NCBI GenBank assembly: GCA_951406725.2
Contig: OX597816.1
Location: 54,746,001-54,810,000 of the forward strand
DNA length: 64,000 nt
Source: Octopus vulgaris
Taxonomy: Eukaryota
Reading direction: 5' to 3'
A program made the position numbers and the translations under genes. Below, in pieces: positions 10,171 through 59,253 of the stretch (the stretch's first letter is position 1; each line of letters starts with the position of its first letter). The notes below the pieces were generated by a model that saw only the letters and a program-made list of their open reading frames with translations, did not search any database and was not told where the DNA came from.

Positions 10171-10707
10171 ATATATTTGATTTGATCTAGCTTCATCTCA
10201 TGAGCTGTGGTCATGCTGGAGCACTGCCATTTTGTGTTGCTATGTAATTTTACTTCACTAATGCGTTTTAGAAATTGACATTTGGTGCATGAGGGAGTTT
10301 GTGTATATGTGCATATATATATATATACGTAAAGCGAAAAAATACAAGCTTCTTGGTGTTACAAGAAACATGGATATAACTGGAGTTGGGTATAAGCTAC
10401 ACTTTTCAGGCAAGGAAGTTACTTGATGCCCTGATGTGATATGAACTACGGATTGTGATACTGAAACAACATCTGCAGCAGAGAAAATAAACCAGTAACT
10501 ATCTTGTTCAAATTTGTGACCACGAGGAGAGCTAATGAACTTGAGTAGAGGTATGAAATAAAAATTGAAACAGATCTCTCCCCATGGAGCATTGTAAAAT
10601 CTATGAAACAGAACAACAGGAAAAATGGGCCAGTACACGTGGGTTCTTGGCACATATAACCAAAGCCATAGAAGGGTTTAATTCTATTAAATTATGGGCA
10701 TGAAGTA

Positions 10708-11997
10708 CGAGGGGCGTTCAATAAGTAATGCCCCTGATCCACTTGAAGTAGTTCGATCTAGCTGAACTTTTGCATGTGCAATTACTGATATCTCTATAGA
10801 TTACGTGGCAAATTACAGCTCTAAACTAATTGTGGTTTCTGATTTACAGGTGTTTGAACTGAGTCAAGTGTGAAATGGAGTCTGTTGAATGTCGAGCAGT
10901 GATCCGGTTTTGTATTTGAAAGGACGCACACCACGGGAGACTTTTGATGAAATGAAAGTAACTTATTGTGATAATGCCCCATCATATGACCTTGTAAAAC
11001 GCTGGCATCGTGAATTCAAACATGGTTGGAACTCTGTGGAAACAGCTCCCAGGTCTGGTCGCCCCCTTCTGCCATTGATGAGGCATCTGTCCGTCAAGTT
11101 GAGGCTGCTATTTTGGAAGATCGACGCATAACTATTCGCGAAATAGCCCATGAGGTCAAGATTAGTACCGGGTCTGAAGAAACTATCATTCATGACCATT
11201 TGCATTTGCAAAAGGTGTCTGCCAGATGGATTCCCAGGTTGCTCACGTCTTTCCAGAAGCAAGAAAGTGTCGATTGCTCGCGGATGAATTTGGAGATGTG
11301 CCAAGAATATGAGTCAAAATTTTTCAAAAGACTGATTACACAGGATGAAACCTGGGTCCATCACTATGATCCAGAGACCAAAGCCCAGTCAATGCAGTGG
11401 AAGCACCGTGACTCCCCTCCTCCAAAGAAGGCAAGGGTGCAGCCCTCCGCTGGCAAGGTCATGCTCACAGTCTTCTGGGACCAGGTCGGAGTAGTGATGA
11501 CAGATTTCCTGGCAAATGGTGCCACAATTACAGGAGCCTATTATGCTTCACTTTTGAGGAAATTAAGAGAAGCTATCAAAATCAAGAGGCGGGGCAAGAT
11601 CAGCAAAGGCATCCTCTTCCTGCAGGACAACGCTCCGGTCCACAACTCGCGTGTCGCCAGATCAGAAGCACAGGCGTGCGGCTATGAACTCCACTCCCAT
11701 CCCCCTACTCTTCTGACTTTGCACCTTCTGATTTTCACCTCTTCCCAATCATGAAGTTGTTTTTGAAAGGAAAGCGTTTCCCAGATGATGCAGCCTTGAT
11801 TTCTGAAGTCACGTCGTGGCTGGAGGACCAAGCTGGTGTCTTCTACAGAAACGGTCTTCAGAGCTGCATCAAACGATGGGAGAAATGCGTAACTCTGGGT
11901 GGTACCTATGTAGAAAAAGACTAATAACTGTGCCAAGTTTCGTTGCTCTACTGCTATGGGAAGTGGGTCAGGGGCATTACTTATTGAACGCCCCTCG
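10708..11997 (+). mobile_element. Full-length mariner transposon (1290 bp)
   Basis: 37-bp TIRs CGAGGGGCGTTCAATAAGTAATGCCCCTGA(T/C)CCACTT with 1 mismatch; TA duplication at 10706-7 and 11998-9. Confidence 0.97.
10875..11924 (+). pseudogene. Mariner D,D34D transposase with frameshifts
   Basis: MESVECRAVIRF.., PRSGRP, WIPRLL, TQDETWVHHYDPETK, FLQDNAP, HPP(Y)S.D.APSDFHLF, RWEKCVTLGGTYVEKD*; about 3 frameshifts. Confidence 0.93.
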
Positions 11998-24665: not shown

Positions 24666-24697
<32 letters not shown>

Positions 24698-24793
24698 ATA
24701 AAACGGTAAGATAACAAAAGAAAGAAAGAGACCTCAATATTATGTAAATAGAGGAAATTTATCTATACAATATGTTACATTACTCGGTAGTCA

Positions 24794-24856
24794 AGATAAA
24801 ACTCTGAGTTTCAGATGCCGAAGTGGAAATCCACAACACCATCTCTTCGGTTATCT
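24794..24856 (-). ncRNA. Minimal type I hammerhead ribozyme in PLE pLTR
   Basis: AGATAA CCGAAGA GATG..CATC T GAAAC TCAGA GTT TTATCT. Confidence 0.7.
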
Positions 24857-25050
24857 GGCTATTTGAAAACGTTATGAAAAAATACCGTTAAAAATGAAGG
24901 GAAATTACTCTGTTATAACTCTGCTTTGCCTGCGTACTTATACATCGCTCGCATTTTTCGTCATAAAAATTATATAAAAATACATAAAAATATATAAAAA
25001 TATATAAAAATATATAAAATCTTCTTGGGACATAACACAGAAAGCATGTT

Positions 25051-25992
25051 CTATCCGTTTTCTTTAGGGGACCAAAAACGTAACAGAAATTTAGTCACAT
25101 GTGGGCATGATCCGAAAAGTTCTGTCCTTGTATTTAGACATGTGGTAGGGTCTAAGCTGCTTTTCCAGATAAGCCATCTCTCCATGTCGCATAAACCGCA
25201 CCTTCCGCTGCCGTTAGTATAGGGCTTACATCTGGCCAAAATCTTCCATTGTATGTTATAATCGACACCTTTATCTCTTAAAGACCAAATATGATTGGAT
25301 AATTGTGTCGCTTTTCTTTTGTTCCAGTGCCTAAAGCTCAAAGTGTGGTTATTGAACCTGGCCTTGAAATTACCCTCTGTCAGGCCCACGTATTTCTTCG
25401 TCAAAACGGTGTCTTTAGTGGTTATAGAGTTTACGGTAGCTTCATATATGATGGTCTTGGACATGCAAGCTCCATTTAGCGGGCACAATTCTTTATTCCT
25501 GCATGAACAGCTGTTTTCTTCTTGTGTTTTTTGTATGTTATGATTGATTATGTTTTTAAAATTGGTAGTTGAACTAAAACTAATTTTTAAATTGTGTCTA
25601 TTGAAGAGTTTCCTATAAGCATGGTTAACTGGAAAATGTCTATCTATCAGTGCTAGGAAATATTTACCTATATTGAAGGCCACCTCGGGTGAGTAAGGGG
25701 GCGTAAACCAGATGACCTTCCTATTTCTATTATTCCTTTTCCTTATTGTTGGGCTGGTGATAGGTGTATATTTTATTTTTTCGCTAAAACCACTATCTTT
25801 TAAAGCTTTATTATAAACTGGGGCAACGCTATTGAAGATGTCCTCATTAGATGAGAGGCTAGAAATCCTCTTACTAATATTTTTAACTAAATTTTTGAAT
25901 ACTATAGGGGGATGGCATGAACCTACATTAATATAACTTAGTCTATCATTGGGCTTCCTATAAGGCTTATAAATATTATTATTAAGATCTAA
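25051..25992 (-). CDS. PLE polyprotein C-terminal part: RT thumb, linker and GIY-YIG endonuclease (5'-truncated, no start codon)
   Basis: Open frame LDLNNNIYKPYRKPNDRLSYINVGSCHPP...ALKDSGF...WFTPPYS...NIGKYFL...CSCRNKELCPLNGAC..IIYEATV..YVGLTEGNFKARFNNH..CGLCDME..LNTRTEL..CPH. Confidence 0.9.
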   Translation of the reverse strand, partial: LDLNNNIYKPYRKPNDRLSYINVGSCHPPIVFKNLVKNISKRISSLSSNEDIFNSVAPVYNKALKDSGFSEKIKYTPITSPTIRKRNNRNRKVIWFTPPYSPEVAFNIGKYFLALIDRHFPVNHAYRKLFNRHNLKISFSSTTNFKNIINHNIQKTQEENSCSCRNKELCPLNGACMSKTIIYEATVNSITTKDTVLTKKYVGLTEGNFKARFNNHTLSFRHWNKRKATQLSNHIWSLRDKGVDYNIQWKILARCKPYTNGSGRCGLCDMERWLIWKSSLDPTTCLNTRTELFGSCPHVTKFLLRFWSPKENG

Positions 25993-26142
25993 GGAATATT
26001 TTTATATATTTTTATGTATTTTTATATAATTTTTATGACGAAAAATGCGAGCGATGTATAAGTACGCAGGCAAAGCAGAGTTATAACAGAGTAATTTCCC
26101 TTCATTTTTAACGGTATTTTTTCATAACGTTTTCAAATAGCC

Positions 26143-26205
26143 AGATAACCGAAGAGATGGTGTTGTGGATTTCCACTTCGGCATCTGAAACTCAGAGTTT
26201 TATCT
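26143..26205 (+). ncRNA. Minimal type I hammerhead ribozyme in inverted PLE pLTR
   Basis: Stem I AGATAA/TTATCT, core CCGAAGA, stem II GATG/CATC, GAAAC, near-palindromic stem III ACTC-A-GAGT. Confidence 0.7.
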
Positions 26206-26234
26206 TGACTACCGAGTAATGTAACATATTGTAT

Positions 26235-26268
<34 letters not shown>

Positions 26269-30635: not shown

Positions 30636-33571
30636 CGCATCTTGAACCCGATATAGGTGATGCAGAAATACACATGCCACAATATGCAGTCATACGCACA
30701 GATAGAAAAGGGAGGAGCCATGGTGGAGTTGCAATGTACATCCGAGATGACCTCACGCCCCAGGTCCTGCTGTCATATTCAAACTCAGTATGTGAAACTC
30801 AAATTGTACACATAAGACAACTGAATATCGTCATATGCACTACATATCGCCCACCAGACGCCCCAAAACACTCAGGCATGTTTGAAGACTGCCTAACAAA
30901 AATAGAGAAGTCCTCACCAACCTTGAACAGCACAACAGTGTATTCTTCATGGGTGACTTTAACCTCCCCAATGTGGAATGGCCTGGGGGGCAGATGCTCC
31001 CAGGGATGACACACCATCAGCAGGCACAGGTGGAGTCCCTGCTCCATCTCACAAATACCTCTTTCATGGAAGCAAATAGTTCTGCAACCAACAAGGGCAG
31101 ATAATATACTGGATCTCTGCTTCACAAACAATATGGATATTATCCATAATGTTAATGTGATGCCGACAATGATCTCGGATCACAACATAATAGAGCTGTC
31201 TATGTATGGAACAAAAGCCCCCGCAGACACACAGCCTATACGAAGCACCTACCATCTCTCCAACTTAAACTTTCATAAAGCCAACTGGAAGTCGATTGAG
31301 AAAGAGATCCTCAAACAGGATTGGCCTGAATGTCTCTCCACACCGGACATAAACATGAAACACAAACACTTCATGTCCATAATACAAGCCATATGTGACA
31401 AATATGTCCCAATGTGCAGGGCCAGCACACACAAGAACAAAAACAGGATCCCTAGAGAAAGGAGGATTCTTATGAGACGACGGACAAGGATTGCAAACCG
31501 CCTGAGCAAGCACACCAAAAGTGGTGAGAAGTCTCGGCTCGAAAGAATGCTAATGGAAACTGAGAAAAGTCTACATCAGTTCCATGAAAAGGAGAGAGCA
31601 GATAAAGAAGCTTGGGTAATAGAAAATATAAAATCAAACCCTAAAGCTTTCTTTAAGTTTGCCAAAGAGACAGCCACAGTGCACCAGAGAATAGGACCTC
31701 TCTTCCAAACAGATGGCTCTCTCACAGGAAATCCCACGAGGATAAGTGAAATACTGAACGAACAGTTCCAAAGTGTGTTCACTACACCTCTAGGACACAG
31801 GCAAGTAAACAACCCAGAAGAATTCTTTGCCACTTTACCAGCGGCCAAAGAGACAAAAATTGAGTACATCAACATCGAAGAAGATGATATCACACTAGCC
31901 ATTGATGAGATTGACACAAACTCAGCTGCTGGACCTGATGGATTCCCAGCGATCCTTCTCAAATCGTGCAAACGAGCCCTTGCAAAACCGCTACAGCTTC
32001 TTTTTCAGAGCTTTCTTGCAAGTGGTAAGCTCCCAGTCAAACTGAAAGAGGGGGTAATATGCCCTATCCATAAGAGAGGTAGCAGAGCAGATGCTAAAAA
32101 TTATAGGCCTATCTCTCTGACCTCACACATCAGCAAAGTCATGGAACGAATAGTCCGTAAGAAACTAATCATGTTCCTTGAAGAAAATGACTTACTGTCT
32201 GACACCCAGCATGGATTTCGACCAGGTAGAGGCTGCCTAACACAGCTCCTGCAACACTATGACTGGGTGTTGAAACAGCTACTAAATGGCTCAAATGTGG
32301 ATGTAATATATCTTGACTTTGCAAAAGCCTTTGATAAAGTCGACCATGGTATGATCTGTCACAAACTGCGTGGTCTCGGCATAGGCGGGAAACTTGGAGA
32401 GTGGCTGCACAACTTCCTAAAAGACAGAAAACAGGCAGTTGTGAGCAATGGAGCCACCTCCAGGGAAACGCAAATAACAAGCGGTGTCCCACAGGGCACT
32501 GTCTTGGGGCCACTGATGTTCATGGTGGCCCTTTCAGACATGCCTTCAGTTGCTACGATGACCACCCTTGCTAGCTATGCAGATGACACAAAAGTCTCCC
32601 ACGCAATACAAAACCCTGAAAATATTGCGCATCTGCAACATGAGCTGGACACAATATACAGGTGGGCTGAGGACAACAACATGCAGTTTAATGCAGGTAA
32701 GTTCCAGGCCCTGCGCTACTGGCACACAAAGGTAAATGACGTGAAGACTGGATACACTGGCCCAGGAAGAATTGCAATCCCTGAGTCAAAATCAGTGCGT
32801 GACCTGGGCATTGACATGAGCAATGATGCATCTTTCCAAATGCATATTGCTAATCTGGTGATAAAATGCAGACGGCTGGCTGGATGGATTCTCCGAACTT
32901 TCAGAACAAGAGAGAAGGAGACACTGATGGTCCTATGGAAAACATTCGTCCTCAGCCGCTTGGACTACTGCTCCCAACTTTGGTCACCACACAATATAAA
33001 ACAAACAGCAGAACTCGAAGCAACTCAGAGAAGCTACACAAAGAAAATCGTCTCAATGCAAAATGTCAGCTACTGGGAAAGACTGAAGGTATTAAACCTC
33101 TTCTCCCTGGAGCGGAGGCGGGAGAGATATGCAGTGATATACATCTGGAAAATCCTGGAGGGTCTTGTCCCAAACTTTGGCATTCAAAGTTACTCCAACC
33201 GCAGAACGGGGCGCCGCTGCGTGGTGCCAAGGATTCCAACATCACCATCAAAATACAGGTCCAGATACTGCAACAGCTTGGGTTTCAGAGGACCACAGCT
33301 CTTTAACATCCTCCCTAAATGCCTGAGAGACTTACATGGTGTGGATGTGGGTTTCTTTAAAACTAAACTGGATCTCTTCTTGTTGGGAGTCCCAGATGAA
33401 CCTACCTCACGACAGGAGACACGGATGCGGGCAGCAGCATCGAACTCCCTTGTTGATCAAGTGCCACGTATCAGAGGTGGATTCACAAACTAGTGTAGCT
33501 CATTCAGCGGTGGTGCCCCAGCATGGCCGCGGCCTTCGGGCTAGAACATTTTTAAGGATTTAAGGATTTAA

Positions 33572-33574
<3 letters not shown>
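30635..33574 (+). mobile_element. CR1/L2-group LINE, 5'-truncated, in (TA)n
   Basis: APE motifs (THL, RTDR..GGVAMY, YRPP, MGDFN, LDLCF, SDHN) followed by RT; 3' hairpin and (TTTAAGGA)3 tail. Confidence 0.95.
31133..33493 (+). CDS. LINE ORF2 (end of APE plus reverse transcriptase), 786 aa open; upstream APE frameshifted
   Basis: AAGPDG, NYRPISLTS, QHGFR, YLDFAKAFDKVDH, SGVPQGTVLGP, YADD, RDLGI, LDYCSQLWSP. Confidence 0.93.
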   Translation: MDIIHNVNVMPTMISDHNIIELSMYGTKAPADTQPIRSTYHLSNLNFHKANWKSIEKEILKQDWPECLSTPDINMKHKHFMSIIQAICDKYVPMCRASTHKNKNRIPRERRILMRRRTRIANRLSKHTKSGEKSRLERMLMETEKSLHQFHEKERADKEAWVIENIKSNPKAFFKFAKETATVHQRIGPLFQTDGSLTGNPTRISEILNEQFQSVFTTPLGHRQVNNPEEFFATLPAAKETKIEYINIEEDDITLAIDEIDTNSAAGPDGFPAILLKSCKRALAKPLQLLFQSFLASGKLPVKLKEGVICPIHKRGSRADAKNYRPISLTSHISKVMERIVRKKLIMFLEENDLLSDTQHGFRPGRGCLTQLLQHYDWVLKQLLNGSNVDVIYLDFAKAFDKVDHGMICHKLRGLGIGGKLGEWLHNFLKDRKQAVVSNGATSRETQITSGVPQGTVLGPLMFMVALSDMPSVATMTTLASYADDTKVSHAIQNPENIAHLQHELDTIYRWAEDNNMQFNAGKFQALRYWHTKVNDVKTGYTGPGRIAIPESKSVRDLGIDMSNDASFQMHIANLVIKCRRLAGWILRTFRTREKETLMVLWKTFVLSRLDYCSQLWSPHNIKQTAELEATQRSYTKKIVSMQNVSYWERLKVLNLFSLERRRERYAVIYIWKILEGLVPNFGIQSYSNRRTGRRCVVPRIPTSPSKYRSRYCNSLGFRGPQLFNILPKCLRDLHGVDVGFFKTKLDLFLLGVPDEPTSRQETRMRAAASNSLVDQVPRIRGGFTN

Positions 33575-33610
<36 letters not shown>

Positions 33611-33729
33611 AATCAAGGAATGGCCATAATAGGCCATTCACCCACTAGAAATAACAGCCAAAGCTTCAACCGCAAAATAACATTAATTCCGCAAACCAGG
33701 AGAAAATTAAAAAAGCATTTACCCTGTAA

Positions 33730-33834
33730 TTTCTTATACGATGCACCGTTTCATCTATTGTTTAATGGTAAACTAACCTGATTAAATTAAATCAAGCCAA
33801 TCTTCCATAGGCCGATAGATTCGTCAGTAAGAAA
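33730..33834 (-). ncRNA. Type I hammerhead ribozyme (cassette A, copy 1)
   Basis: TTTCTTA CTGACGA ATCTAT..ATAGAT GAAAC GGTGCATC GTA TAAGAAA. Confidence 0.88.
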
Positions 33835-34212
33835 TAGCCAGATCCGAGCAGATATTATCACGAGGCACCTCTATCCCTGCCTCGGCAATATCTGACCTAA
33901 AATTTTCAAATCATCGCACTCGCGCCAAATTTATCGGCAGCAAATATAAGCCGCCGATTCCATTACGGAATTAACCAGAAAATTCATAATTAATCAATAT
34001 AGGGTGGCAAAAAATTCGTAGAATTTATTTGCCACCAGCGGCCTAATGGGAAAAAATTAAATAGTCATAGACCATTTATAAGTTCAACATCACAATCAAG
34101 GAATGGCCATAATAGGCCATTCACCCATTAGAAATAACAGCCAAAGCTTCAACCGCAAAATAACATTAATTCCGCAAACCAGGAGAAAATTAAAAAAACA
34201 TTTACCCTGTAA

Positions 34213-34317
34213 TTTCTTATACGATGCACCGTTTCATCTATTGTTTAAGGGTAAACTAACCTGATTAAATTAAATCAAGCCAATCTTCTATAGGCCGATA
34301 GATTCGTCAGTAAGAAA
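34213..34317 (-). ncRNA. Type I hammerhead ribozyme (cassette A, copy 2)
   Basis: Same motif, 483 bp from copy 1. Confidence 0.88.
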
Positions 34318-34761
34318 CAGCCAGATCCGAGCAGATATTACCACGAGGCACCTCTATCCCTGCCTCGGCAATATCTGACCTAAAATTTTCAAATCATCGC
34401 ACTCGCGCCAAATTTATCGGCAGCAAATATAAGCCGCCGATTCCATTACGGAATTAACCAGAAAATTCATAATTAATCAATATAGGGTGGCAAAAAATTT
34501 CGTAGAATTTATTTGCCACCAGCGGCCTAGTGGGAAAAAATTAAATAGTCATAGACCATTTATAAGTTCAACATCACAATCAAGGAATGGCCATAATATT
34601 GATTAATTATGAATTTTCTGGTTAATTCCGTAATGGAATCGGCGGCTTATATTTGCTGCCGATAAATTTGGTGCGAGTGCGATGATTTGAAAATTTTAGG
34701 TCAGATATTGCCGAGGCAGGGATAGAGGTGCCTCGTGATAATATCTGCTCGGATCTGGCTG

Positions 34762-34866
34762 TTTCTTACTGACGAATCTATCGGCCTATGGAAGATTGGC
34801 TTGATTTAATTTAATCAGGTTAGTTTACCATTAAACAATAGATGAAACGGTGCATCGTATAAGAAA
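34762..34866 (+). ncRNA. Type I hammerhead ribozyme (cassette A, inverted copy)
   Basis: Stem I TTTCTTA/TAAGAAA, CTGACGA, stem II ATCTAT/ATAGAT, GAAAC, GTA cleavage triplet. Confidence 0.88.
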
Positions 34867-35086
34867 TTACAGGGTAAATGTTTTTTTAATTTTCTCCTGG
34901 TTTGCGGAATTAATGTTATTTTGCGGTTGAAGCTTTGGCTGTTATTTCTAGTGGGTGAATGGCCTATTATGGCCATTCCTTGATTGTGATGTTGAACTTA
35001 TAAATGGTCTATGACTATTTCATTTTTTCCCACTAGGCCGCTGGTGGCAAATAAATTCTACGAAACTTTTTGCCACCCTATATTGA

Positions 35087-35122
<36 letters not shown>

Positions 35123-35287
35123 GTTGTATACTGTCAATCTAACAAGAACGTGACAGTAGGGGGTACACCACCGCTGTATAGCCCTAGGAAGCATCGAACG
35201 CCTCCTGATAGCTTTCACACATTTTCCCCTGTGTCCTTATATAGATATACGAAGGGGAGACAAACACCCCCGGGTGCCGGAACTGCA

Positions 35288-35333
35288 TCTAGGGACACCG
35301 TGTTTCAGGATCGTTGTCCTTCATCGGCCTAGA
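35288..35333 (-). ncRNA. Type I hammerhead ribozyme (cassette B, copy 1)
   Basis: TCTAGG CCGATGA AGGA-caacga-TCCT GAAAC ACGGT GTC CCTAGA. Confidence 0.88.
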
Positions 35334-35650
35334 GTAGCAGACACCGGTCAGCTGGTGATATTTGCCTCGGCTTCGTAATTCTATATATCTATATTCAGTG
35401 AAGTTTATTCACTGATTATCAAAATAAGAAATATTGAATTTCTAAATCTCTCGTAGAGACATGTACGGTGGTGGTGCGATAGAATGGTTGTATACTGTCA
35501 ATCTAACAAGAACGTGACAGTAGGGGTACACCACCGCTGTATAGCCCTAGGAAGCATCGAACGCCTCCTGATAGCTTTGAAACATTTTTCCCTGTGTCCT
35601 TATATAGATATACGAAGGGGAGACAAACACCCCCGGCTGCCGGAACTGCC

Positions 35651-35696
35651 TCTAGGGACACCGTGTTTCAGGATCGTTGTCCTTCATCGGCCTAGA
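35651..35696 (-). ncRNA. Type I hammerhead ribozyme (cassette B, copy 2)
   Basis: Identical motif 363 bp from copy 1. Confidence 0.88.
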
Positions 35697-35832
35697 GTAG
35701 CACATGTCTCTACGAGAGATTTAGAAATTCAATATTTCTTATTTTGATAATCAGTGAATAAACTTCACTGAATATAGATATATAGAATTACGAAGCCGAG
35801 GCAAATATCACCAGCTGATCGGTGTCTGCTAC

Positions 35833-35878
35833 TCTAGGCCGATGAAGGACAACGATCCTGAAACACGGTGTCCCTAGA
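35833..35878 (+). ncRNA. Type I hammerhead ribozyme (cassette B, inverted copy)
   Basis: Identical motif on the + strand. Confidence 0.88.
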
Positions 35879-36104
35879 TGCAGTTCCGGCAGCCGGGGGT
35901 GTTTGTCTCCCCTTCGTATATCTATATAAGGACACAGGGAAAAATGTGTGAAAGCTATCAGGAGGCGTTCGATGCTTCCTAGGGCTATACAGCGGTGGTG
36001 TACCCCCTACTGTCACGTTCTTGTTAGATTGACAGTATACAACCATTCTATCGCCCCACCACCGTACATGTCTCTACGAGAGATTTAGAAATTCAATATT
36101 TCTT

Positions 36105-36168
<64 letters not shown>

Positions 36169-36189
36169 TATATATATAAATAAATATAT

Positions 36190-37291
36190 ATATCTTTTAT
36201 CTGTTACTGCTCTCAGCCCAGAGCTGAGATCATGCTGGTGCACCACCTGTAGTTACGCGGTTTTGTTTCCTGTATTGTTTTTGGTGAAATAGAGATTTGG
36301 ACGGAGCTCCTCCTCTTTGCATCTCCTGGCGCGATGTGAGTTCATCTGGTATCTCAGACGTTCCTCCACTTCAACACCATGTAGATCTCTAAGGCTGCCT
36401 GGCAGGATGTTGAACAATTGTTGAAATCCACGCTATTGTTTTACTGTGTCCTTCTTCTAAATGGGAAGACGGGATCTTTGGTATGGTGCAGTGCCGTCCA
36501 GTTCCAGGATTGGTATTGCAGTCAATTCCAAAATCGGAATCTAAACCCTTCAAGATCCTCATATCTCTCTCGCCTTCTCTCCGGGGAGTTGATATTCAGC
36601 TCCTTTCGCCTCTCCCAGTAACCCATCTTTTGCATCGAGTCAATCTTCATTGGTCATTGTCGCTGGATTGCTTCAAGTTCTACTGTGTGTTTCACAATCT
36701 CTGAGGATTATAACTGGGAACTGTAGTCGAAGCGGCTGAGAACGAAAGTCCTCCACAAGAGTAGCAGGGTCTTCCTTCTCCTGGTTCTGAATCCATGCAG
36801 TCTCCCACCTGCACAGTGTTTCATTCTTGGTATTATGCATATGGAATGTTGCATCATTGCTCATATGAAACTCCATATCACGCATCCACTCTGAATCTGG
36901 GATCGTATTACCTTCTGGTCCAGTGTATTCCGATTTTAGCCTAGTGTTAGGCTGATAATGGAGTACCTGAAATTTCATATCGTTGAACTGCATGCTATTT
37001 TTGTTAGCCTATTTGTATATTTCATTCAGGTCTTTCTGCAGTTTTATGATTTCCTGTAGGTTCCTAAATTACTGAGGTACTTTTGTGTTATCCGCGTAAC
37101 TGGTCAGGTTGGCTGACTGTACCACGGAAGATATATCTGAGAGAACCACTACGAATAGTAGTGGCCATAGGACAGTTCCCTCTTGGACTCTGTTGATAAT
37201 TGGTGCCTCTGCAGAGTGAGCATCATTAGCTACAACTGTCTGCCTCCTACTCTTCAGAAAGTCACGCAGCTGCTCTCCCAGTTTCCCGGTG
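36190..37291 (-). mobile_element. Older CR1/L2-group LINE 3' fragment
   Basis: [49 protein letters not shown]; 3' tail GGTGGTGCACCAGCATG. Confidence 0.85.
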
Positions 37292-37386: not shown

Positions 37387-37444
<58 letters not shown>

Positions 37445-37485
37445 AATGTATATATGTATATATGTATATATACATATACATATAC

Positions 37486-37542
<57 letters not shown>

Positions 37543-38010
37543 TTAAAATAACTAAGTCTCTCTAAAAGAGAACGCGGCAGCGTTCCCGGAAAATAATAGT
37601 TATCGCCATACTAATATGGCATTCTTATAAAAATAAGAAAAAGCTGTCCGCTTATTAGCTCCATGAGGCCATCGCCTTAAGTTAGCTATTTGATACACAA
37701 ACTGTATCCATATAACCTGACCTCCCTTGTTCGAAGGTTATATGGATACAGTTTGTGTATCAAATAGCTAACTTAAGGCGATGGTCATGGAGCTAATAAG
37801 CGGACAGCTTTTTTCTTATTTTTATAAGAATGCCATATTAGTATGGCGATAACTATTATTTTCCGGGAACGCTGCCGCTGTTCTCTTTTAGAGAGACTTA
37901 GTTATTTTAATATTTCTATTATTGAAAACAAGTGGATGTATTCCACCGAAACTAGGTAAATAAAACCATCGAACAGAGATTGTCGGAAGCGACACCTACT
38001 GGCTGGCTAC

Positions 38011-38052
38011 GCTGCATTGAAAAGGGGCAATACCCTGAAACGCGTCTGTAGC
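38011..38052 (+). ncRNA. Variant minimal hammerhead (U3-A8 core), cassette C copy 1
   Basis: GCTGCA TTGAAAA GGGG-caata-CCCT GAAAC GC GTC TGTAGC. Confidence 0.75.
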
Positions 38053-38372
38053 TGCCGGTCAAGTAGTGTGGAGCGACTGACCTCCCTTGTTCGAAGGTTA
38101 TATGGATACAGTTTGTGTATCAAATAGCTAACTTAAGGCGATGGCCTCATGGAGCTAATAAGCGGACAGCTTTTTTCTTATTTTTATAAGAATGCCATAT
38201 TAGTATGGCGATAACTATTATTTTCCGGGAACGCTGCCGCTGTTCTCTTTTAGAGAGACTTAGTTATTTTAATATTTCTATTATTGAAAACAAGTGGATG
38301 TATTCCACCGAAACTAGGTAAATAATACCATCGAACAGAGATTGTCGGAAGCGACACCTACTGGCTGGCTAC

Positions 38373-38414
38373 GCTGCATTGAAAAGGGGCAATACCCTGA
38401 AACGCGTCTGTAGC
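38373..38414 (+). ncRNA. Variant minimal hammerhead (U3-A8 core), cassette C copy 2
   Basis: Identical motif 362 bp downstream. Confidence 0.75.
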
Positions 38415-38577
38415 TGCCGGTCAAGTAGTGTGGAGCGACTGACCTCCCTTGTTCGAAGGTTATATGGATACAGTTTGTGTATCAAATAGCTAACTTAAGG
38501 CGATGGCCTCATGGAGCTAATAAGCGGACAGCTTTTTTCTTATTTTTATAAGAATGCCATATTAGTATGGCGATAAC

Positions 38578-38618
<41 letters not shown>

Positions 38619-38620
<2 letters not shown>

Positions 38621-41530
38621 ACTTAGAATAACTTAGAAAGGTTTTTGGCCAGTATTGGCCCAGGCCATGTCTAACTTAATAGCACCACCTGGCGAAGTCT
38701 TTCAGTTCAGGATTTGGGCACCAAGGCCCATTCGAGCAGAGAGTTATTGGTTGCGGAGACATATCCGGGTGTGGGTGGTTTGTCCGGTACTGTTTGAAGG
38801 AATTTGTCCAAAGACTTCTTGAATTTTGTGTGGTCAGTTTCTTTTTTGACGTGTCCTGGTGTAATGTTGAAGAGAGCGGGTCCAATTGAGGTGAAATAGT
38901 TGTGCCGTATTGTCGTTATGTGATGTGATTTAGATTTTTGTTGTGGACGGATGGCACGTGGTCCAAGCCTTGGATGCATTTTGAAGGTGATGCCAGTATC
39001 ATTCGGACAGTGCTGATGGAATATTTTCCACATCATACAGATAATGTAGCGTTCACGGCGTCGTTGGAGTGAATACAATTGCAGCTTCTCTAGTCTACCC
39101 CAGTAGTCAAGGTCTGACATGCCATCTATCTTTTTTGTGATTGACCTTTGGGGAGCTTCAATTCTCATAATATTTTGTTTTGTGTAGGGAGACCACAGTG
39201 GACAGCAGTATTCAAGGTGGGGTCGGGCAAAAGTGGAGAAGAGAAGGATAATAGCGTGGGAATCTCTCGACTGGAAGGTTCTGAGAATCCAGGAACACAT
39301 TCTGCGGGCCATGTCAACTTTGCTGCTTATATGTGTAGCCCAGCTTATGTTGTTGTCCACTGTTACTCCCAGGTCTCTGATGTTGTTGGATGCCATGAGA
39401 ATTTCTCCAGAAGGAAGAGAGTATGGGAGTTTCAGAGCGTCCTCCCTTCCAAAGTGGATCAGTTCGAATTTGTCTTCATTTAGCAACATGTTATTCTTTT
39501 CCGCCCATTGGACAACAGCCAGTAGGTCTCACTGAAGGTTTATTCGGTCATCCACGCCATTGATGACCTTCTGGAGCTTGGGATCATCAGCGAAGGTTCT
39601 GATGTTACTGTGTTTGATGGTGTCAGTAATATCATTTATGTAGATGATGAAGAGAAGTGGGCCCAACACGGTGCCTTGTGGGACACCACTGCTGACTTTG
39701 GCTGGGCTGGATTTGACTCCTTCGACTACAACAAGTTGGGTTCTGTTAGACAGGAAGCACTTGATCCATTGCAGCAGCTTTCCAGTGACACCAATATTGG
39801 ACAGCTTTCTCAGAAGGATCTTATGATCAACCCTGTCAAAGGCCTTGCTGAAATCAAGGTAGATGACATCAGTGTTGGAACCCTCTCCCAAGGCTCTCAA
39901 AATGTCATCAAAATGATGCAGTAGCTGCGTCAGGCAATCTCTCCCATTACGGAATCCATGCTGGTTGGGGTTCAGCATATTATGACTCTCAAGGAAGTGA
40001 GTCATACGCGATCTCAGCACCCTCTCAAATACCTTGATGATATGAGAGGTGAGTGAGATTGGACGGTAATTCACGGCAAGCGATTTGTTTCCTTTTTTGA
40101 AAACTGGGACAACAGACTGGGATAGAAGGTCTTCTGGTATATATCCAGCATCCAGTGAGTTCCGCCACAGATTGGCTAGAGGGGGTGCAAGTTGGTTTTG
40201 ACACATCTTCAAGACACAAGCAGGGAACCTATCGGGACCTACTGCTGAATTATGCTTCATTTCCTTTATTGCTGCTAAGACATCAGGAGCGCCAAATGTT
40301 ATGTCCGATAAAGTGTATTGGGGAGTAACATCACTGATACAGTCATATCAGGATTGCTGAAAACAGAGCAATATTGTTTCTGCAATATCTCTCCCATGGT
40401 TTTGGCATTGTCTTGAAGAGTACCATTTTCATCAATCAGAGGGCCAACAGTAGAACCAGTGACTGTGTTTTTTTGCAAATGAAAAGAACACTTTGGGATT
40501 GAGTTTGATCTTCTCAATGGCCCAGGCCTCTTCAGCTCTTCGCTGACTATTGATGATAGACATCATGTTGTTTTGGAGTTTATGTTTTTTAATCTCTAGC
40601 GACGAGATGGCAGTCAGGTTGGTGTGTTGCTGTTGACAGTATTTCTGCATGTTGATCTTTTTGTTGATTCTTTTAATTTTCCTTATGAGAGATTTTCTAT
40701 TTCTAGGGATTCGACACTTAGATTTGTTTGCAGATCTTAATGGGGTGTGTCTTGCACATATGTTCGTGATGGTGTCTACAAGTGACTGCCAGGACTTTTT
40801 GATGTTAGTGGGTGTGTATGTGTGCGTGAAGGACCAATCGACTTGTGCAAGATCATTATTGATGGCTTCCCAGTTTGCATTGTGGAAATCCATAGTGTCA
40901 AATGGATGAACAGGAGGGATGACATTTGTTTTGCATTTTGGCCAGTGAAATCTCAGATCACAGAGAACCATGTCATGGTCGGAGAGTAGGGTTTTCTCCA
41001 CTGCAATATTGTGGATAGTATCAGTGTGATTGCTGAAAATTAAGTCTAAGACGTTTTTGTGACATCTCGTTGGTTCGAGTACCAGTTGGGACAAGAAGAA
41101 GTCATCCATGAAGTCAAGAAGCGATTCCACTGCCTCCCTGTCAGGGGTTGAGAGAGAAGAACCTGGCGGCAGACTGTTTGTAGACCAGTCAACCCCGGGA
41201 AGGTTGAAGTCTCCCATCATTAAAATGTTGTCAGGTTGACACTGCTGAATGAAACACTTTATGCTGTTGAGGCATTCCTTGAAGCATGGTAGGGGCGTTT
41301 GGGGTGGTCTGTAGAGCCCAACTACTGTTAAGTTGTTGGTTTGACTGAATACAGCGACTGCTTCGCAGTATCCATTGGAAAATATGTTCATGGCTTCTGT
41401 TGAGAATGAATCATGGACATAAATGGCAGTCCCACCCTTTCTTCTGCCAGCACGATCAGCACGAATGGTTTTGAAATGTTTAACTTTCACCTCGGCTTCC
41501 AAGTGGAGGTCACTAAGATGGGTTTCAGTG
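38619..41530 (-). mobile_element. CR1/L2-group LINE (second family), 5'-truncated, frameshifted ORF2, in (TA)n
   Basis: APE (TETHL, RADR..GGTAIYV, LYRPP, MGDFN, LDLIF, SDHD) in 40432-41502; RT (NYRPISLTS, LDFSKAFD, GVPQGTVLGP, FADD) in 39529-40260; C-terminus 38707-39489; (TTCTAAGTTA)2 tail. Confidence 0.95.
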
Positions 41531-41542
41531 TATATACATATG

Positions 41543-41608
<66 letters not shown>

Positions 41609-52699: not shown

Positions 52700-54900
52700 G
52701 TAGATTTACTTCGGTGCTATGAAAAAGCCAGAGATGACCCTTCAATGGGATATAAGAAGCAGTTAAAATAATACTCGGACAAAGCTACAAGTCCAATCTG
52801 TGGGCGGAACAGTAAAAATATGCAAGACTTTTCTCAATTTCCAAATGTGAATTTGTCTGTGTTAACTACATTCTAAAGATGGAGCCTTGTATCCTTGTTG
52901 GCAACTGTAGTTTTTAAGTTCTGCTCTGCTTCCTCCTTTATGGATGGGGCATATTATTCTTTCATTTAGTGTGTCCGTGAGCTTATTATTTGCATCGAAG
53001 CACTGAAAAAGTGGCTGCAATGGTTTTACAAGGACTCGTTTGCTTGACTTGAGGAGGATTGCTGGAAATCAGTCAGGTCCAGCAGCTGAACATGCATCTA
53101 TATCATCTATTTCCAGCATTACATCCTTTTCTTCGATGTTAATGTAATCAGTTGTTACTACATCCCGTTCAACTCCTGTGGCGGTAAAGAACTCTTCAAG
53201 TTTGCTAATTTGCATGCGCCGCAGGGGTTGGGGCGAATACATTTTTGAGCTGTCTACTCAGTATTTCACTCATACTCACTGGGTTGCTCGTAAAGGAGCC
53301 ATCTCTTTGGAGGAGTGACCCTTACCCTGCAATGCGCAGAAACAGTCTCCTTGACTTACCCAAAGAAGGTTTCAAGGTCTGATCTTATATTTCTTATGAC
53401 CCAGTCTTCTCTGTCTGATCTTTCCTTCTCATGGGAGTGCTTCAGCTATTTCTCTGTCTCCAGCAGTGCTGTTTCCAGGCAGGGTTTCTCACAGCCGTTG
53501 AGTTCTCTGTTGAGGTAGCTTGCAATATCTTTTTACGCCGTCTCACAAGAACTTTTCTCTCCCTGAAAATCTTCTTTTTTTTATGTGCAGTGGCCCTTCT
53601 CTCTGGGACAAAATTGTAGCATATGGCTTGTATTACGGATATGAATGTTTTCAATTTCATGTCTATGTCAGGTGTAGAGAGACAGTGGAACAAGTTCCGT
53701 TAAGTGATCTCTTTCTCAACTGTCTTCCAGTCTGCTTTGTGGTAGTTCAGACTGGATAGGTTTTGGATGCTTCTCATAGTCTGCAAGTCTGCGGGTTCCT
53801 TTGATCCATACATGGTCATCTCTATTATGTTATGATCCGAGATTAGTGTCGGTGTCACTTTCACATTATGGATGAGATCCACACTGTTTGTGAAGCAGAT
53901 ATCTAGTATACTGTTTGCCATGGTTTATTGGAGTATTATTTGCTTCATGTATAACTTGGTGAGGTTGAGCAAGGATTCCATCTGACTTTGCTCACATCAC
54001 GTCATTCCTGGAAAGAAAAGGCCATCAGGCCATTCCACATTAGGCAGGTTGAAGTCGCCCCGGAAAAGTACATGGGTGTACTCTTCTAGACTGGTTAAGA
54101 CTTCTTTTATTCTTGCAAGGCAGTCTTCGAATTGGCTCGTGTGATTTGGGTTATCTGGTGGGCGATATGTAGTACATATAACTATGCCAAGTTGTCTTAT
54201 ATGTACAATTCGTGTGTCATACACTGAGTTTGAGTATCACAAAAGGATCTGGGACGTGAGATCTCCATGAATGTACACTGCAACTCCGCCATGGCCTTTG
54301 TCTACACCAAACAACATTCTTTGGTATGTGTATTTCGAGTTTTAGGTGAGTTTCAGTGTGTGTTATGCATAGAGCTTGATTGCATACTGTTAGGTCTCTC
54401 AGGGGGCTAATTTTAGTTCTGTTGCTGAATTGTAACAGTCCTCTTACGTTTATGAAGTATACCGGTGGCAGGGCCATCAGTCTTGGTGTCTTCTTCCTTC
54501 GCAGGTCTTTTAATTCCAGCTTTTGTTTCACATGTGTTCCTCGTGGATCAGTTGGTCCCGGGGAAGATCTGTCACTCACATCAGGGTCTCCATCCTTGAC
54601 AACCTTTATGAGTTCTTGTGCAAAGATGGTGTCAAGTGTGTTAATGATAGGTTTGATGAGGGCATAGGATCGGATGAACTCTTGTTTTTTCCGCTTTATC
54701 TCAGCTGTGGTTCTTATGTAGCCATTGCCTTTAGAGCTATCGTTACATTATTTGGATTGTCTCCTTCTGCTATTTGCACCTTCTCAGTAAGCGATTCAGT
54801 TCAGTACTGAATAAGTCCCGAGACATCTTTAGGCTGCTGTTTCCTTCTGTATATATTTAGAAAAATATTGAGATAGAGAGATAGAAAGAGAGGTGTAAGT
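52700..54900 (-). mobile_element. Decayed CR1/L2-group LINE (same family as 30635-33574) including the ORF1/ORF2 junction
   Basis: FINVRGL, ITHTETHL, IVHIRQLGIVICTTYRPPD, GDFNLPNVEW, ILDICFTN, ISDHNIIE, AAGPD. Confidence 0.88.
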
Positions 54901-57059: not shown

Positions 57060-57345
57060 GCTTGGGCTAGTAGTTAGAGTGCTGCATTCACGATCGTGAG
57101 ATCATCGGTTCAATTCCTAGACCGGATGGTGCGTTCTGTTCTTGGGCAAAACACTTCATCTCACGTTGCTCTGCGATCCCTTCGACACCTGACGCATGGC
57201 ACACCGTAACACCTGTTCAGATAACGTCGAGTTGATGAAGGGACAGGTGAGCTAATATAGAGTACATTCTTTTGATCACTATAAACAAATCATTTTTGCA
57301 GGTCGTTTGGCAAAAGCTGAACACTCATGCGTCCTCTCCAACTGG
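57060..57345 (+). mobile_element. tRNA-derived SINE (CORE-like)
   Basis: GGCTAGTAGTTAGAGTGC...CGGTTCAATTCC...TTCTTGGGCAAAACACTTCATCTCAC. Confidence 0.7.
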
Positions 57346-57348
57346 ATA

Positions 57349-57443
<95 letters not shown>

Positions 57444-57456
57444 AACCTATCTATCT

Positions 57457-59253
57457 AAACTGGTCGACAAGGCGCAAACATGCGCCGTGCCGGGCCGGAC
57501 CATCCATGACAACCTCCACCTGATGCGCTACATCATAGACAGGGTAGTTAACGAACCTGGCATGGGTGGGGCGCTGATCAATTTGGATCAATCGAAAGCT
57601 TTCGATAGGGTAGACCATCGATACTTGGAGGCGGTCCTCAGAGCGGCTGGCTTCGGTCCCGTCTTCCGCGGCTGGATAGCCGCTTTGTACAGAGGCATCC
57701 GTTCGGTAATTCGCGTGAATGGACATCTATCGAGACCCTTCGACATCGCACGTTCAGTCCGTCAGGGATGCCCCCTCTCATCGCTTCTATACGTATTGAC
57801 TCTCGAGCCATTATTGCGGAAGCTGGCAACTTTGAGGGGCACCCCGCGAGAACTGGGATGCGGGACAAGCGTGTCTGCATACGCGGACGACGTCACCGTC
57901 ATAGTGTCTAGCCACGAGCACATCGAGACACTGAAAAACTACGAAGCGGTGACAGGAGCGAAAATCAACCGGGAAAAGTCAGTGGGCTTGCGACTAGGCA
58001 CCTGGAGAAGCAAGCCCATGCCGTCCACCAGCGCCTCCGTCGTGGGACGCTGGACCGACGGCCCGGTTGAGTTGCTCGGGGTCTGGTTTGGTCCGGACCT
58101 CCAAGTGGAGAAGAACTGGAACGAGATAACGAGTAGGGTGGTCACTCTCGCCCGGCAATGGGCTTAGAGGAAACTGTCCCTAAAAGGTCGGGCGGAGGTA
58201 GCGAACACGTACATCGCGTCCGTCATCTACTACCGCCTGACCGTCGTACCTTGTCCCGACCCTACCATCACCAAACTACAACGCATTCTCTTTCGCTTCT
58301 TCTGGAAAGGATGCGTCCCGATGGTCAGGCGATCCATTTGCTGTCAACACCCGTTAAAAGGAGGGCTGGGCATGCCGTGGTTGATTATGCGCAGACACGC
58401 GCTGAGACTGCGACATCTCAGGCTCTTCGTAGACGACGGTGAACAGGTGTGGTCGCCGTTTGTGAGGCACGCTTTCCCGCAGCTCGTCTCCATGACCGAA
58501 CTGCAGTCGTGGATCAAAAAGAGGCCGAGGAAGGGCGAATGGCACCGCGAGTGTCGCGTTGCTCTCAAGCAACTCTGCCGTCCTGGGTCGACCTTGAGTG
58601 ACTTCAGCACAACCAAAGCATTCTATAGGGGATTAGTGGAGGGGAGGCACGACGACGAGCTCGGGGCGAACCTGGACGTTGACGAGGAGTACCTGACCCG
58701 CCTGTTCAGGACGACTTTCGGGCCAGGGCCCATGGACAACTTCCAGAGATCCCTTGCCTGGCAATGCTACCGAGAAGCGCTACCCGTTCGGGATAAGCTC
58801 TACAGACACGGCTCGAGAAACACGGGGCCGACCTGCCCGAGATGCGGTCAGAGCGACGAAACCGTTCTGCACGCACTCGTGCAGTGTCCAACAATTTCCG
58901 ATCTGTGGGCTTATGTCGAACGACTGCTGTCACGTGTGGGACGTGTCGGTTTATCAGCTGAGTCTATCGTCAATATTGTCACGCCTCCTTCCTTCAAACG
59001 GGAAGGAAGAGCTATTTTCATCATCCTTGTGGCTATGGCGAAAGAATGTATCTGGTGGACGCGTCTGAAAGGATTGGAGACAAACACTTTCCTCTCTGGT
59101 CAATCTCTCATCAACTTCTTCAAGTACCACTTGAAAAGGAAAGTGAGAGTAGAGAGGCAAGTTTTTTCTAGCGAATGTTTTAAAAAAAGATGGGTGAATG
59201 TAGCAAGGATGGCACGTATGAATGACGAAGCCACCTTGAGCATAATCCTATGA
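57457..59253 (+). pseudogene. Tx1/L1 ORF2 RT plus zinc knuckle, single in-frame stop at 58165-58167
   Basis: LDQSKAFDRVDH, SVRQGCPLS, AYADDV, KLSLKGR, GGLGMP, CPRCGQSDETVLHALVQC; both ORF halves are in the same frame. Confidence 0.92.

Follow-up and report, generated by a model that had tools for sequence, protein, structure and literature searches.

Penelope-like elements (PLEs) with a C-terminal GIY-YIG endonuclease (the EN+ elements of Penelope/Poseidon type; PMC8557442, PMC3846280, PMC11167929, PMC4209133) are described as having a reverse transcriptase (RT) and the endonuclease encoded together by one open reading frame (ORF), a type I hammerhead ribozyme with palindromic stem III in a pseudo-long terminal repeat (pseudo-LTR), and partial tandem copies. 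The same accounts report an inverted 5'-truncated copy, a one-sided tail, insertion into AT-rich or (TA)n DNA with duplication of the target, and two internal RT start sites that bound the tail. PMC3846280 describes an identical layout with 8-10-bp duplications and proposes self-priming for it, and PMC8557442 names the origin of the tandem and inverted insertions and of the one-sided tail as an outstanding question. Metazoan non-LTR retrozymes, for which dependence on PLEs has been proposed (PMC7229834; bioRxiv 10.64898/2026.07.22.740005) and which the second of these papers links to PLE pseudo-LTRs, are few-hundred-nucleotide non-coding tandems with low GC content, one type I hammerhead per unit and many dispersed copies. 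Here we examine a 64,000-nt stretch of the Octopus vulgaris genome (assembly GCA_951406725.2, contig OX597816.1, positions 54,746,001 to 54,810,000; hereafter the window) that contains three retrozyme families (A, B and C) and one truncated PLE resembling these systems in most of the features just listed, with a putative RT and endonuclease ORF. We show that the RNA-sense 3' ends of such insertions lie at two fixed sites in each unit, S1 and S2, and that nearly every two-armed insertion has one arm ending at S1 and the other at S2.

Self-alignment of the window shows that each of the three repeat families, and the PLE, consists of a left arm on the minus strand and a right arm on the plus strand between (TA)n tracts. 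Retrozyme A (483-nt unit) has its left arm at 33606..34598 (minus, 2.05 units, ending 3' at S1, which is +131 when counted from the ribozyme cut) and its right arm at 34596..35094 (plus, 1.03 units, 3' end at S2, +234), the two overlapping by ATA at 34596-34598. Retrozyme B (363-nt unit) occupies 35115..35702 on the minus strand (1.62 units, S1, +178) and 35702..36106 on the plus strand (1.11 units, S2, +233), with a 1-nt overlap (A). The order of the sites is reversed in retrozyme C (362-nt unit), with a left arm at 37534..37718 (minus, 0.52 unit, S2, +235) and a right arm at 37717..38583 (plus, 2.40 units, S1, +175) that overlap by CT at 37717-37718. The stretch from S1 to S2 forms a tail on one arm only: 104 nt at 34991..35094 (plus), found only on the right-arm end of A, 55 nt at 36052-36106 (plus) on the right arm of B, and 59 nt at 37534-37592 (minus) on the left arm of C. 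The flanking (TA)n tracts lie at 33574..33607 left of A, 36104..36193 right of B, 37391..37536 left of C and 38581..38620 right of C, while (TA)13 at 35092..35117 is common to the right end of A and the left end of B, as neighbouring or nested insertions in one tract. Different retrozyme and PLE families often adjoin in one (TA)n tract in this way (L010, L216 and the window at 35092-35117), the flanks of earlier insertions serving as targets.

A pattern scan combined with folding recovered eight type I hammerhead cores with a short palindromic stem III inside the arms of A to C, all eight of them intact; a search of the window at Rfam gathering scores gave 0 matches, and the ribozymes are recognised here by pattern and fold. 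In A, the plus-strand hammerhead at 34760..34868 has a long stem II and a palindromic stem III and is cut after 34859, and the minus-strand copies are cut after 34220 and 33737. The B hammerhead at 35833..35878 (plus) is cut after 35872, with minus-strand copies cut after 35657 and 35294, and those of C (plus) are cut after 38046 and 38408. Family C has a variant core in which a U3-A8 covariant replaces C3-G8 (38017-38023), and in family B core position 4 is a C. No ORF of at least 120 aa lies within the arms of A, B and C, and the local GC content is 0.37-0.44. Being tandem units that lack coding capacity, occur in many copies and contain a hammerhead, A, B and C qualify as non-LTR retrozymes as PMC7229834 uses the term; the units of B and C fall within the published range of 150-450 bp, that of A is slightly above it, and the target duplications of 12-13 bp exceed the 4 bp used in defining retrozymes. 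B and C have in common a 72-nt stretch around S2 at 71% identity.

The PLE of the window belongs to a family that we call P and is truncated at its 5' end. Its long arm (24696..26001, minus) includes the ORF's 3' portion together with the putative endonuclease region (25051-26001), a pseudo-LTR hammerhead cut after 24800 and a tail at 24696-24756, and ends at S2. The short inverted arm (26001..26242, plus) consists of pseudo-LTR only, has a hammerhead cut after 26199 and ends at S1 (about +39), so that each arm carries one hammerhead; the (TA)n flanks are at 24666..24695 on the left and 26232-26266 on the right. Much of this anatomy had been given in a preliminary description of the window, and we find it to be accurate: the strands of the arms, the arm lengths in units, the exact junction overlaps, the (TA)n at all outer ends, and the reading of the arms through intact cut sites with the outer ends away from the cut (eight cores in A to C and two in the PLE). 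What that description missed is that the literature already gives an inverted 5' copy with a one-sided tail as a hallmark of PLEs (PMC8557442, PMC3846280).

Family P is a young PLE with a 2590-nt unit, an intact 708-aa ORF in one copy (L195) and tandems of 2585-2590 nt from cut to cut (L175, L183, L187, L194, L195). The ORF has what we take, by eye, to be RT and GIY-YIG motifs. It has 1011 homologues, one of which (P0022) gave a sub-threshold GIY-YIG match at its C-terminus (E 0.006); a Pfam search with the 708-aa ORF matched no family, and a sequence search of the PDB gave no significant match. A homologue was used as query to find a second PLE family, Q, with a 3359-nt unit. P and Q have an identical palindromic stem III and S1/S2 sites at nearly equal distance from the cut, though their pseudo-LTRs are otherwise unlike.

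To place the ends, we numbered each unit from the ribozyme cut and mapped the 3' ends of 119 retrozyme insertions (40 A, 40 B and 39 C), the best 40 per family having been scored from first-look candidates in the 2.8-Gb genome (1642 for A, 2024 for B and 1174 for C). Eleven duplicate A loci and two loci with other layouts (L034 and L093) were left out before counting; L102 was left out of the haplotype and junction counts, and multi-piece insertions were left out of the containment and junction counts. For family P, 50 of 53 loci were counted, the incomplete L157, L180 and L187 being excluded. The PLE loci were collected with an ORF query and not with the pseudo-LTR, and are thus not an unbiased PLE sample.

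The 119 retrozyme insertions comprise 87 divergent, 30 single-armed and 2 other layouts. Their 3' ends fall in two narrow windows per family (195/204), 55-104 nt apart, with 62/64 at S1 or S2 in A (about 131 and 234 nt from the cut), 65/70 in B (178 and 233) and 68/70 in C (175 and 238). The corresponding sites are at about +39 and +106 in P and at about +40 and +110 in Q. The windows were set after the data had been seen and span 7-9% of the unit, which itself contains 14-18 TAT and 30-59 AT motifs. TA-like sequence adjoins 259 of 285 ends at S1 or S2, and 9 of 11 ends elsewhere have no TA flank, which suggests that the off-site ends are later truncations. Among the eight sites of A, B, C and P, five are predicted to be mostly unpaired and just 3' of a hairpin, S2 of C is intermediate, and S2 of B and S1 of P are not so placed. 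The exact end position moves by a few nucleotides with the target sequence, while the 5' ends are variable and the arm lengths nearly continuous, from 0.07 to 9.2 units, a continuity that the preliminary description had proposed to check. That description had also taken the outer ends to be circularly permuted at assorted AT/TAT motifs, and had named fixed termini across copies as what would speak against its model. Termini fixed in this way are what we find for the 3' ends; the six outer ends of A to C in the window are S1 and S2 sites and not assorted AT/TAT positions. At a single 3' junction in each of four insertions (L104, L069, L063, L035), the element's final bases are carried on as short non-TA repeats, (CT)n, (CAT)n or AAT, for which the opposite side has no corresponding duplication; reiterative slippage at initiation is a possible cause.

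Across the five families, 134 of the 137 two-armed insertions with both ends at a site pair one S1 with one S2. The retrozymes contribute 77/78 divergent insertions (P = 3e-22 against a 1:1 expectation). In family P, 42 of the 50 complete loci are divergent and 38/40 are S1/S2, and in family Q the figure is 19/19, five of these insertions being seen whole. Of 17 Q ends predicted in advance, 13 were examined and 13/13 were correct (L199, L209, L210 and L223 are not among them), and one further Q pair beyond the predicted ends is also S1/S2. Two exceptions to the pairing (L102 and L191) are inverted duplications that take in at least 375 of 400 flank bases. The published PLE tail is called 'optional' or said to be 'often at one end' and measures 30-40 nt in those accounts, whereas here it is 55-104 nt long and sits almost obligately on exactly one arm.

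Target duplications are readable where the target is not pure TA, and there they measure 12 bp (L059, L070, L061, L100), 13 bp (L072) or 9 bp exactly (L101); pure TA on both sides makes them unreadable in 79/166 insertions. In L070 the duplication agrees with the end of the element over 4 nt at each of its tips. At the junction of the arms, 34 of 52 non-gapped cases overlap by at least 2 nt, compared with 16.6% of random joins, and inserted bases (1-32) occur in 22 of the 74 scored junctions (113 tried), several of them being copies of the element by eye. The two arms of an insertion also share minor alleles, in 83/88 comparisons for A and 48/76 for B, as against 12% and 10% between insertions; the arms are concordant in 15/16 cases at a CpG site of C (site 352), and 14/16 family-shared variants of P are present in both arms. 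Neither arm is contained in the other in 14/67 retrozyme and 11/33 PLE insertions (25/100), so that each arm has sequence that the other lacks, and a target-primed cDNA folding back on itself cannot produce these insertions. The S1 arm reaches further 5' in 13/33 PLE insertions. Only 16/38 single-armed insertions have a TA-like 5' flank, consistent with loss of the unprimed second end in the others. An arm-length correlation (rho -0.45) was put aside as a probable sampling effect. In five family C insertions (L096, L112, L114, L118, L122), single units within arrays of 99-100% identity have clustered small deletions or templated insertions, which suggests stretches of error-prone reverse transcription or repair.

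S1 and S2 are located downstream of the ribozyme cut, and any arm of more than 39-238 nt thus requires a template in which that site is uncleaved or re-ligated; a fully cut P monomer would give only about 39 nt from S1. Part of the earlier claim of a circular or uncleaved multimeric RNA therefore stands, namely the read-through, while a monomeric circle is mildly disfavoured by two observations. Among arms longer than one unit, the 5' stops fall within 50 nt after the cut in 11/43 cases for A (4.5 expected, P = 0.004) and 12/48 for C (6.6 expected, P = 0.03), with no excess in B (5/36), these 50-nt windows having been chosen post hoc. Five insertions have unlike units and yet a variant common to both arms, most units being too alike to inform. 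Together, the 5'-stop bias in A and C and the five heterogeneous insertions make us lean towards a linear, partly uncleaved multimer. In family P, 5' stops recur at unit positions 804-814 and 684-698 (L164, L171; L177, L178, L198, L155, L168). Long arrays have periodic unit variants (period 4 in L031, 3 in L042, 2 in L100, mixed in L018) that could come from multimeric circles in L031, L042 and L100; the period of L031 is broken at the ninth unit, which fits a later duplication. Circular RNA has been proposed for these elements (PMC4209133, PMC7229834) and retrozyme circles occur in other animals (PMC7229834), but a circular template with fixed S1 and S2 sites seems to us the less probable alternative. 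The sequencing runs consulted consist of contigs, none of them recorded as RNA. A 379-nt contig in run X10 returns over 360 nt, as a tandem or a circle would alike, and its status as RNA is a guess.

The insertions described here resemble what a PLE protein does in vitro, where it cuts and extends both target strands, begins at two neighbouring positions inside the RNA that mark the limits of the genomic tail, uses unprocessed RNA as its main substrate, does not need ribozyme cleavage and is predicted to be a dimer (PMC11167929). The reading that we favour, with moderate confidence, is that the PLE protein makes cuts in both strands, spaced by about 12 bp, and primes S1 and S2, one per end, after which the cDNAs anneal and complete each other. 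As part of this reading, A, B and C would be non-autonomous retrozymes moved by a Penelope-like RT/GIY-YIG protein and integrating as the autonomous PLEs of this genome do. The data show the fixed sites, the one-of-each rule, the duplications, the microhomology and the shared source of the arms; that priming takes place, that a dimer acts, that one RNA molecule is used and in what order the events follow is inference. The RNA bound by the protein would read through the uncleaved ribozyme and carry S1 and S2 at 39-238 nt downstream of the cut, separated by 55-104 nt. Cuts in both strands of AT-rich DNA, for the most part (TA)n, would be spaced by about 12 bp, as the target duplications suggest, and would leave two 3' overhangs. 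One overhang would prime S1 and the other S2, which would account for the observed one-of-each pattern, and pairing of 0-5 nt may tune the exact base. Both cDNAs would extend toward the 5' end of the RNA and stop variably, often just downstream of the ribozyme; their 3' ends would then anneal by 1-4 nt or through a short templated patch, each templating the other. The expected product is a back-to-back insertion with the tail on one side, and where the second end is left unprimed, a single arm would result, often with loss of the far (TA)n end. The double priming of the preliminary description is retained to the extent that both ends of the break appear to prime inside the RNA and the two cDNAs appear joined by microhomology, as the junction overlaps, target duplications, shared haplotypes and non-contained arms indicate; what changes is that priming is not at arbitrary AU motifs but at two fixed sites, one per end.

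Two other routes would also place S1 and S2 on opposite arms. A cDNA or antisense RNA might fold back and copy itself into a hairpin, whose strands the endonuclease cuts at S1 and S2 before the opened hairpin inserts, an idea in which the self-priming proposed in PMC3846280 is joined to what PMC8557442 calls 'EN-mediated resolution'. The pairing of S1 with S2 then arises by construction and shared haplotypes follow too, and there are further observations of the kind this route would leave: in P the 5' ends of the two arms lie within 150 nt in 8/19 long-arm pairs (3.4 expected, P = 0.008), L164 and L171 have an identical junction on different contigs but different variants, and L011 and L116 each have a variant in common in the junction-symmetric register. 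We nevertheless consider this main rival unlikely. Its target-primed form requires the S1 arm to lie inside the S2 arm, contrary to the PLE insertions in which S1 is further 5' and to the 25/100 non-contained cases; only a free hairpin remains, whose strands would have to be cut with a stagger of 55-104 nt that differs from family to family, while the end positions shift by a few nucleotides with the target and PMC11167929 maps both sites as RT starts on RNA primed by cut target DNA. Priming might instead use two RNAs of one source locus, each held by one subunit of a dimer whose asymmetry sets S1 and S2, as dual priming has been proposed for LINE-1 (PMC2837659). Two templates are the simplest source of overlapping arms, and occasional discordant arms (L097, L120) and the lack of any register preference fit as well, but at least ten A haplotypes coexist and the arms still agree in 83/88 comparisons, which would need strong cis preference or burst expression, and L092 and the window copy of B have a variant in common only in the 3'-terminal unit of both arms; we regard this route as quite improbable.

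The original proposal, in which both ends prime on a circular RNA at arbitrary AU motifs and the ends come out permuted, has in its favour the arms that cross intact cut sites and reach 9.2 units, the retrozyme circles of other animals (PMC7229834) and the periodic variants of L031, L042 and L100. It is ruled out for the 3' ends by their confinement to two sites, and as a whole it is very doubtful, because cDNA wrapped around a circle should not give 5' ends clustered within 50 nt after the cut in the longer arms of A and C, and the five insertions with unlike units and a cross-arm variant, like the broken period of L031, also speak against it. That the inversions are assembly artefacts is hardly credible. 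The flank-including inverted duplications in L102 and L191 could be artefacts or later rearrangements, and the window's own junction was not seen bridged in the contig pieces listed, but the arms end at different fixed sites and carry private changes, some of the insertions have target duplications, and among the 15 joints shown (of 18) in contigs from runs X1-X3, eleven different ones of family C go from minus to plus and one more is an opposite-strand joint, with two of these occurring in two runs.

Several points weigh against the dual priming by a PLE protein that we favour. The genomic evidence consists of end products only, with no intermediate seen, and the samples, the best-scoring 40 of 1174-2024 candidates per family from one genome, are biased to long, young copies. 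One end lies at neither site in 9 retrozyme and 2 PLE divergent insertions. The S2/S2 insertion L176 has only weak inverted flank similarity and is an unexplained exception, and L183, which is S1/S2, also has similar inverted flanks, so that the flank criterion is not clean. Discordant arm pairs occur at shared sites (L097 and L120, and 1858T in L165 and L185). Arm mismatch is 0.72% in the 3'-terminal register and 0.61% in the others; since it is no lower in the terminal register, it does not establish that both arms copy the same RNA molecule. Five insertions were informative as to whether the two arms begin in one and the same RNA unit, three in the terminal register (L127 also junction-symmetric) and two in others, with no overall register effect. 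In the PMC11167929 account, no difference in start site is reported between top and bottom strand, priming occurs without homology, and one-of-each use is not shown. P and Q, the only two PLE families compared, have no sequence similarity to A, B and C, and no autonomous partner of the retrozymes was identified in this comparison.

Twin priming is a minority outcome for LINE-1, whereas two-armed insertions are the majority outcome in our sample. LINE-1 twin or dual priming (PMC2837659) is alike in that both target strands prime, the inverted cDNAs lie within a target duplication and the junctions have microhomology; it differs in that one primer is on poly(A) and the other at an arbitrary internal site and the pieces do not overlap, while here both sites are fixed and next to each other, poly(A) is absent and the arms overlap. 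Published retrozymes are described as head-to-tail tandems from circles, whereas 87/119 of the insertions sampled here are two-armed with fixed ends of the PLE type; the word 'inverted' is absent from the main text of PMC7229834 and appears in bioRxiv 10.64898/2026.07.22.740005 only within a reference. The inverted 5' copy and the one-sided tail are already known for PLEs. For the strict one-of-each rule, PLE twin priming and two-armed retrozymes, we found no statement in the literature searched, a search that covered neither supplements nor subscription papers, such as the 2005-2006 PLE reviews cited in PMC8557442, which may describe them.

The surroundings of the retrozymes contain other mobile elements. 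A LINE-type RT ORF of 827 aa (31010-33575) has three copies of an 8-nt repeat at its end, and retrozyme A lies in the (TA)n directly after it; LINE fragments related to this ORF occupy 36200-37290, 38620-41600 and 52900-54750. Another LINE-type RT at 57256-59253 has a C-terminal zinc-finger-like region, is GC-rich and is split by one stop, and a fragment at 11014-11754, mariner transposase-like by eye, has inverted termini near 10705 and 12000.

The near-exceptionless one-of-each rule, which was measured across five young families and borne out by prediction, sets limits on the mechanism of PLE insertion and is testable in the existing in vitro system (PMC11167929). A broader hypothesis, which we hold to be evenly balanced, is that PLEs with an endonuclease integrate by default through asymmetric twin priming, in which one ribonucleoprotein, probably a dimer, would cut both strands about 12 bp from each other and assign the two ends of the break to S1 and S2 of one RNA, the two cDNAs then priming each other with no separate second-strand step, and animal retrozymes would be minimal parasites that keep only the ribozyme and the two-site cassette. 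The one-of-each rule also provides evidence of a structural kind, not dependent on sequence homology, that PLE machinery moves animal retrozymes, and that they are copied from fixed starts and not from arbitrary points on a circle.

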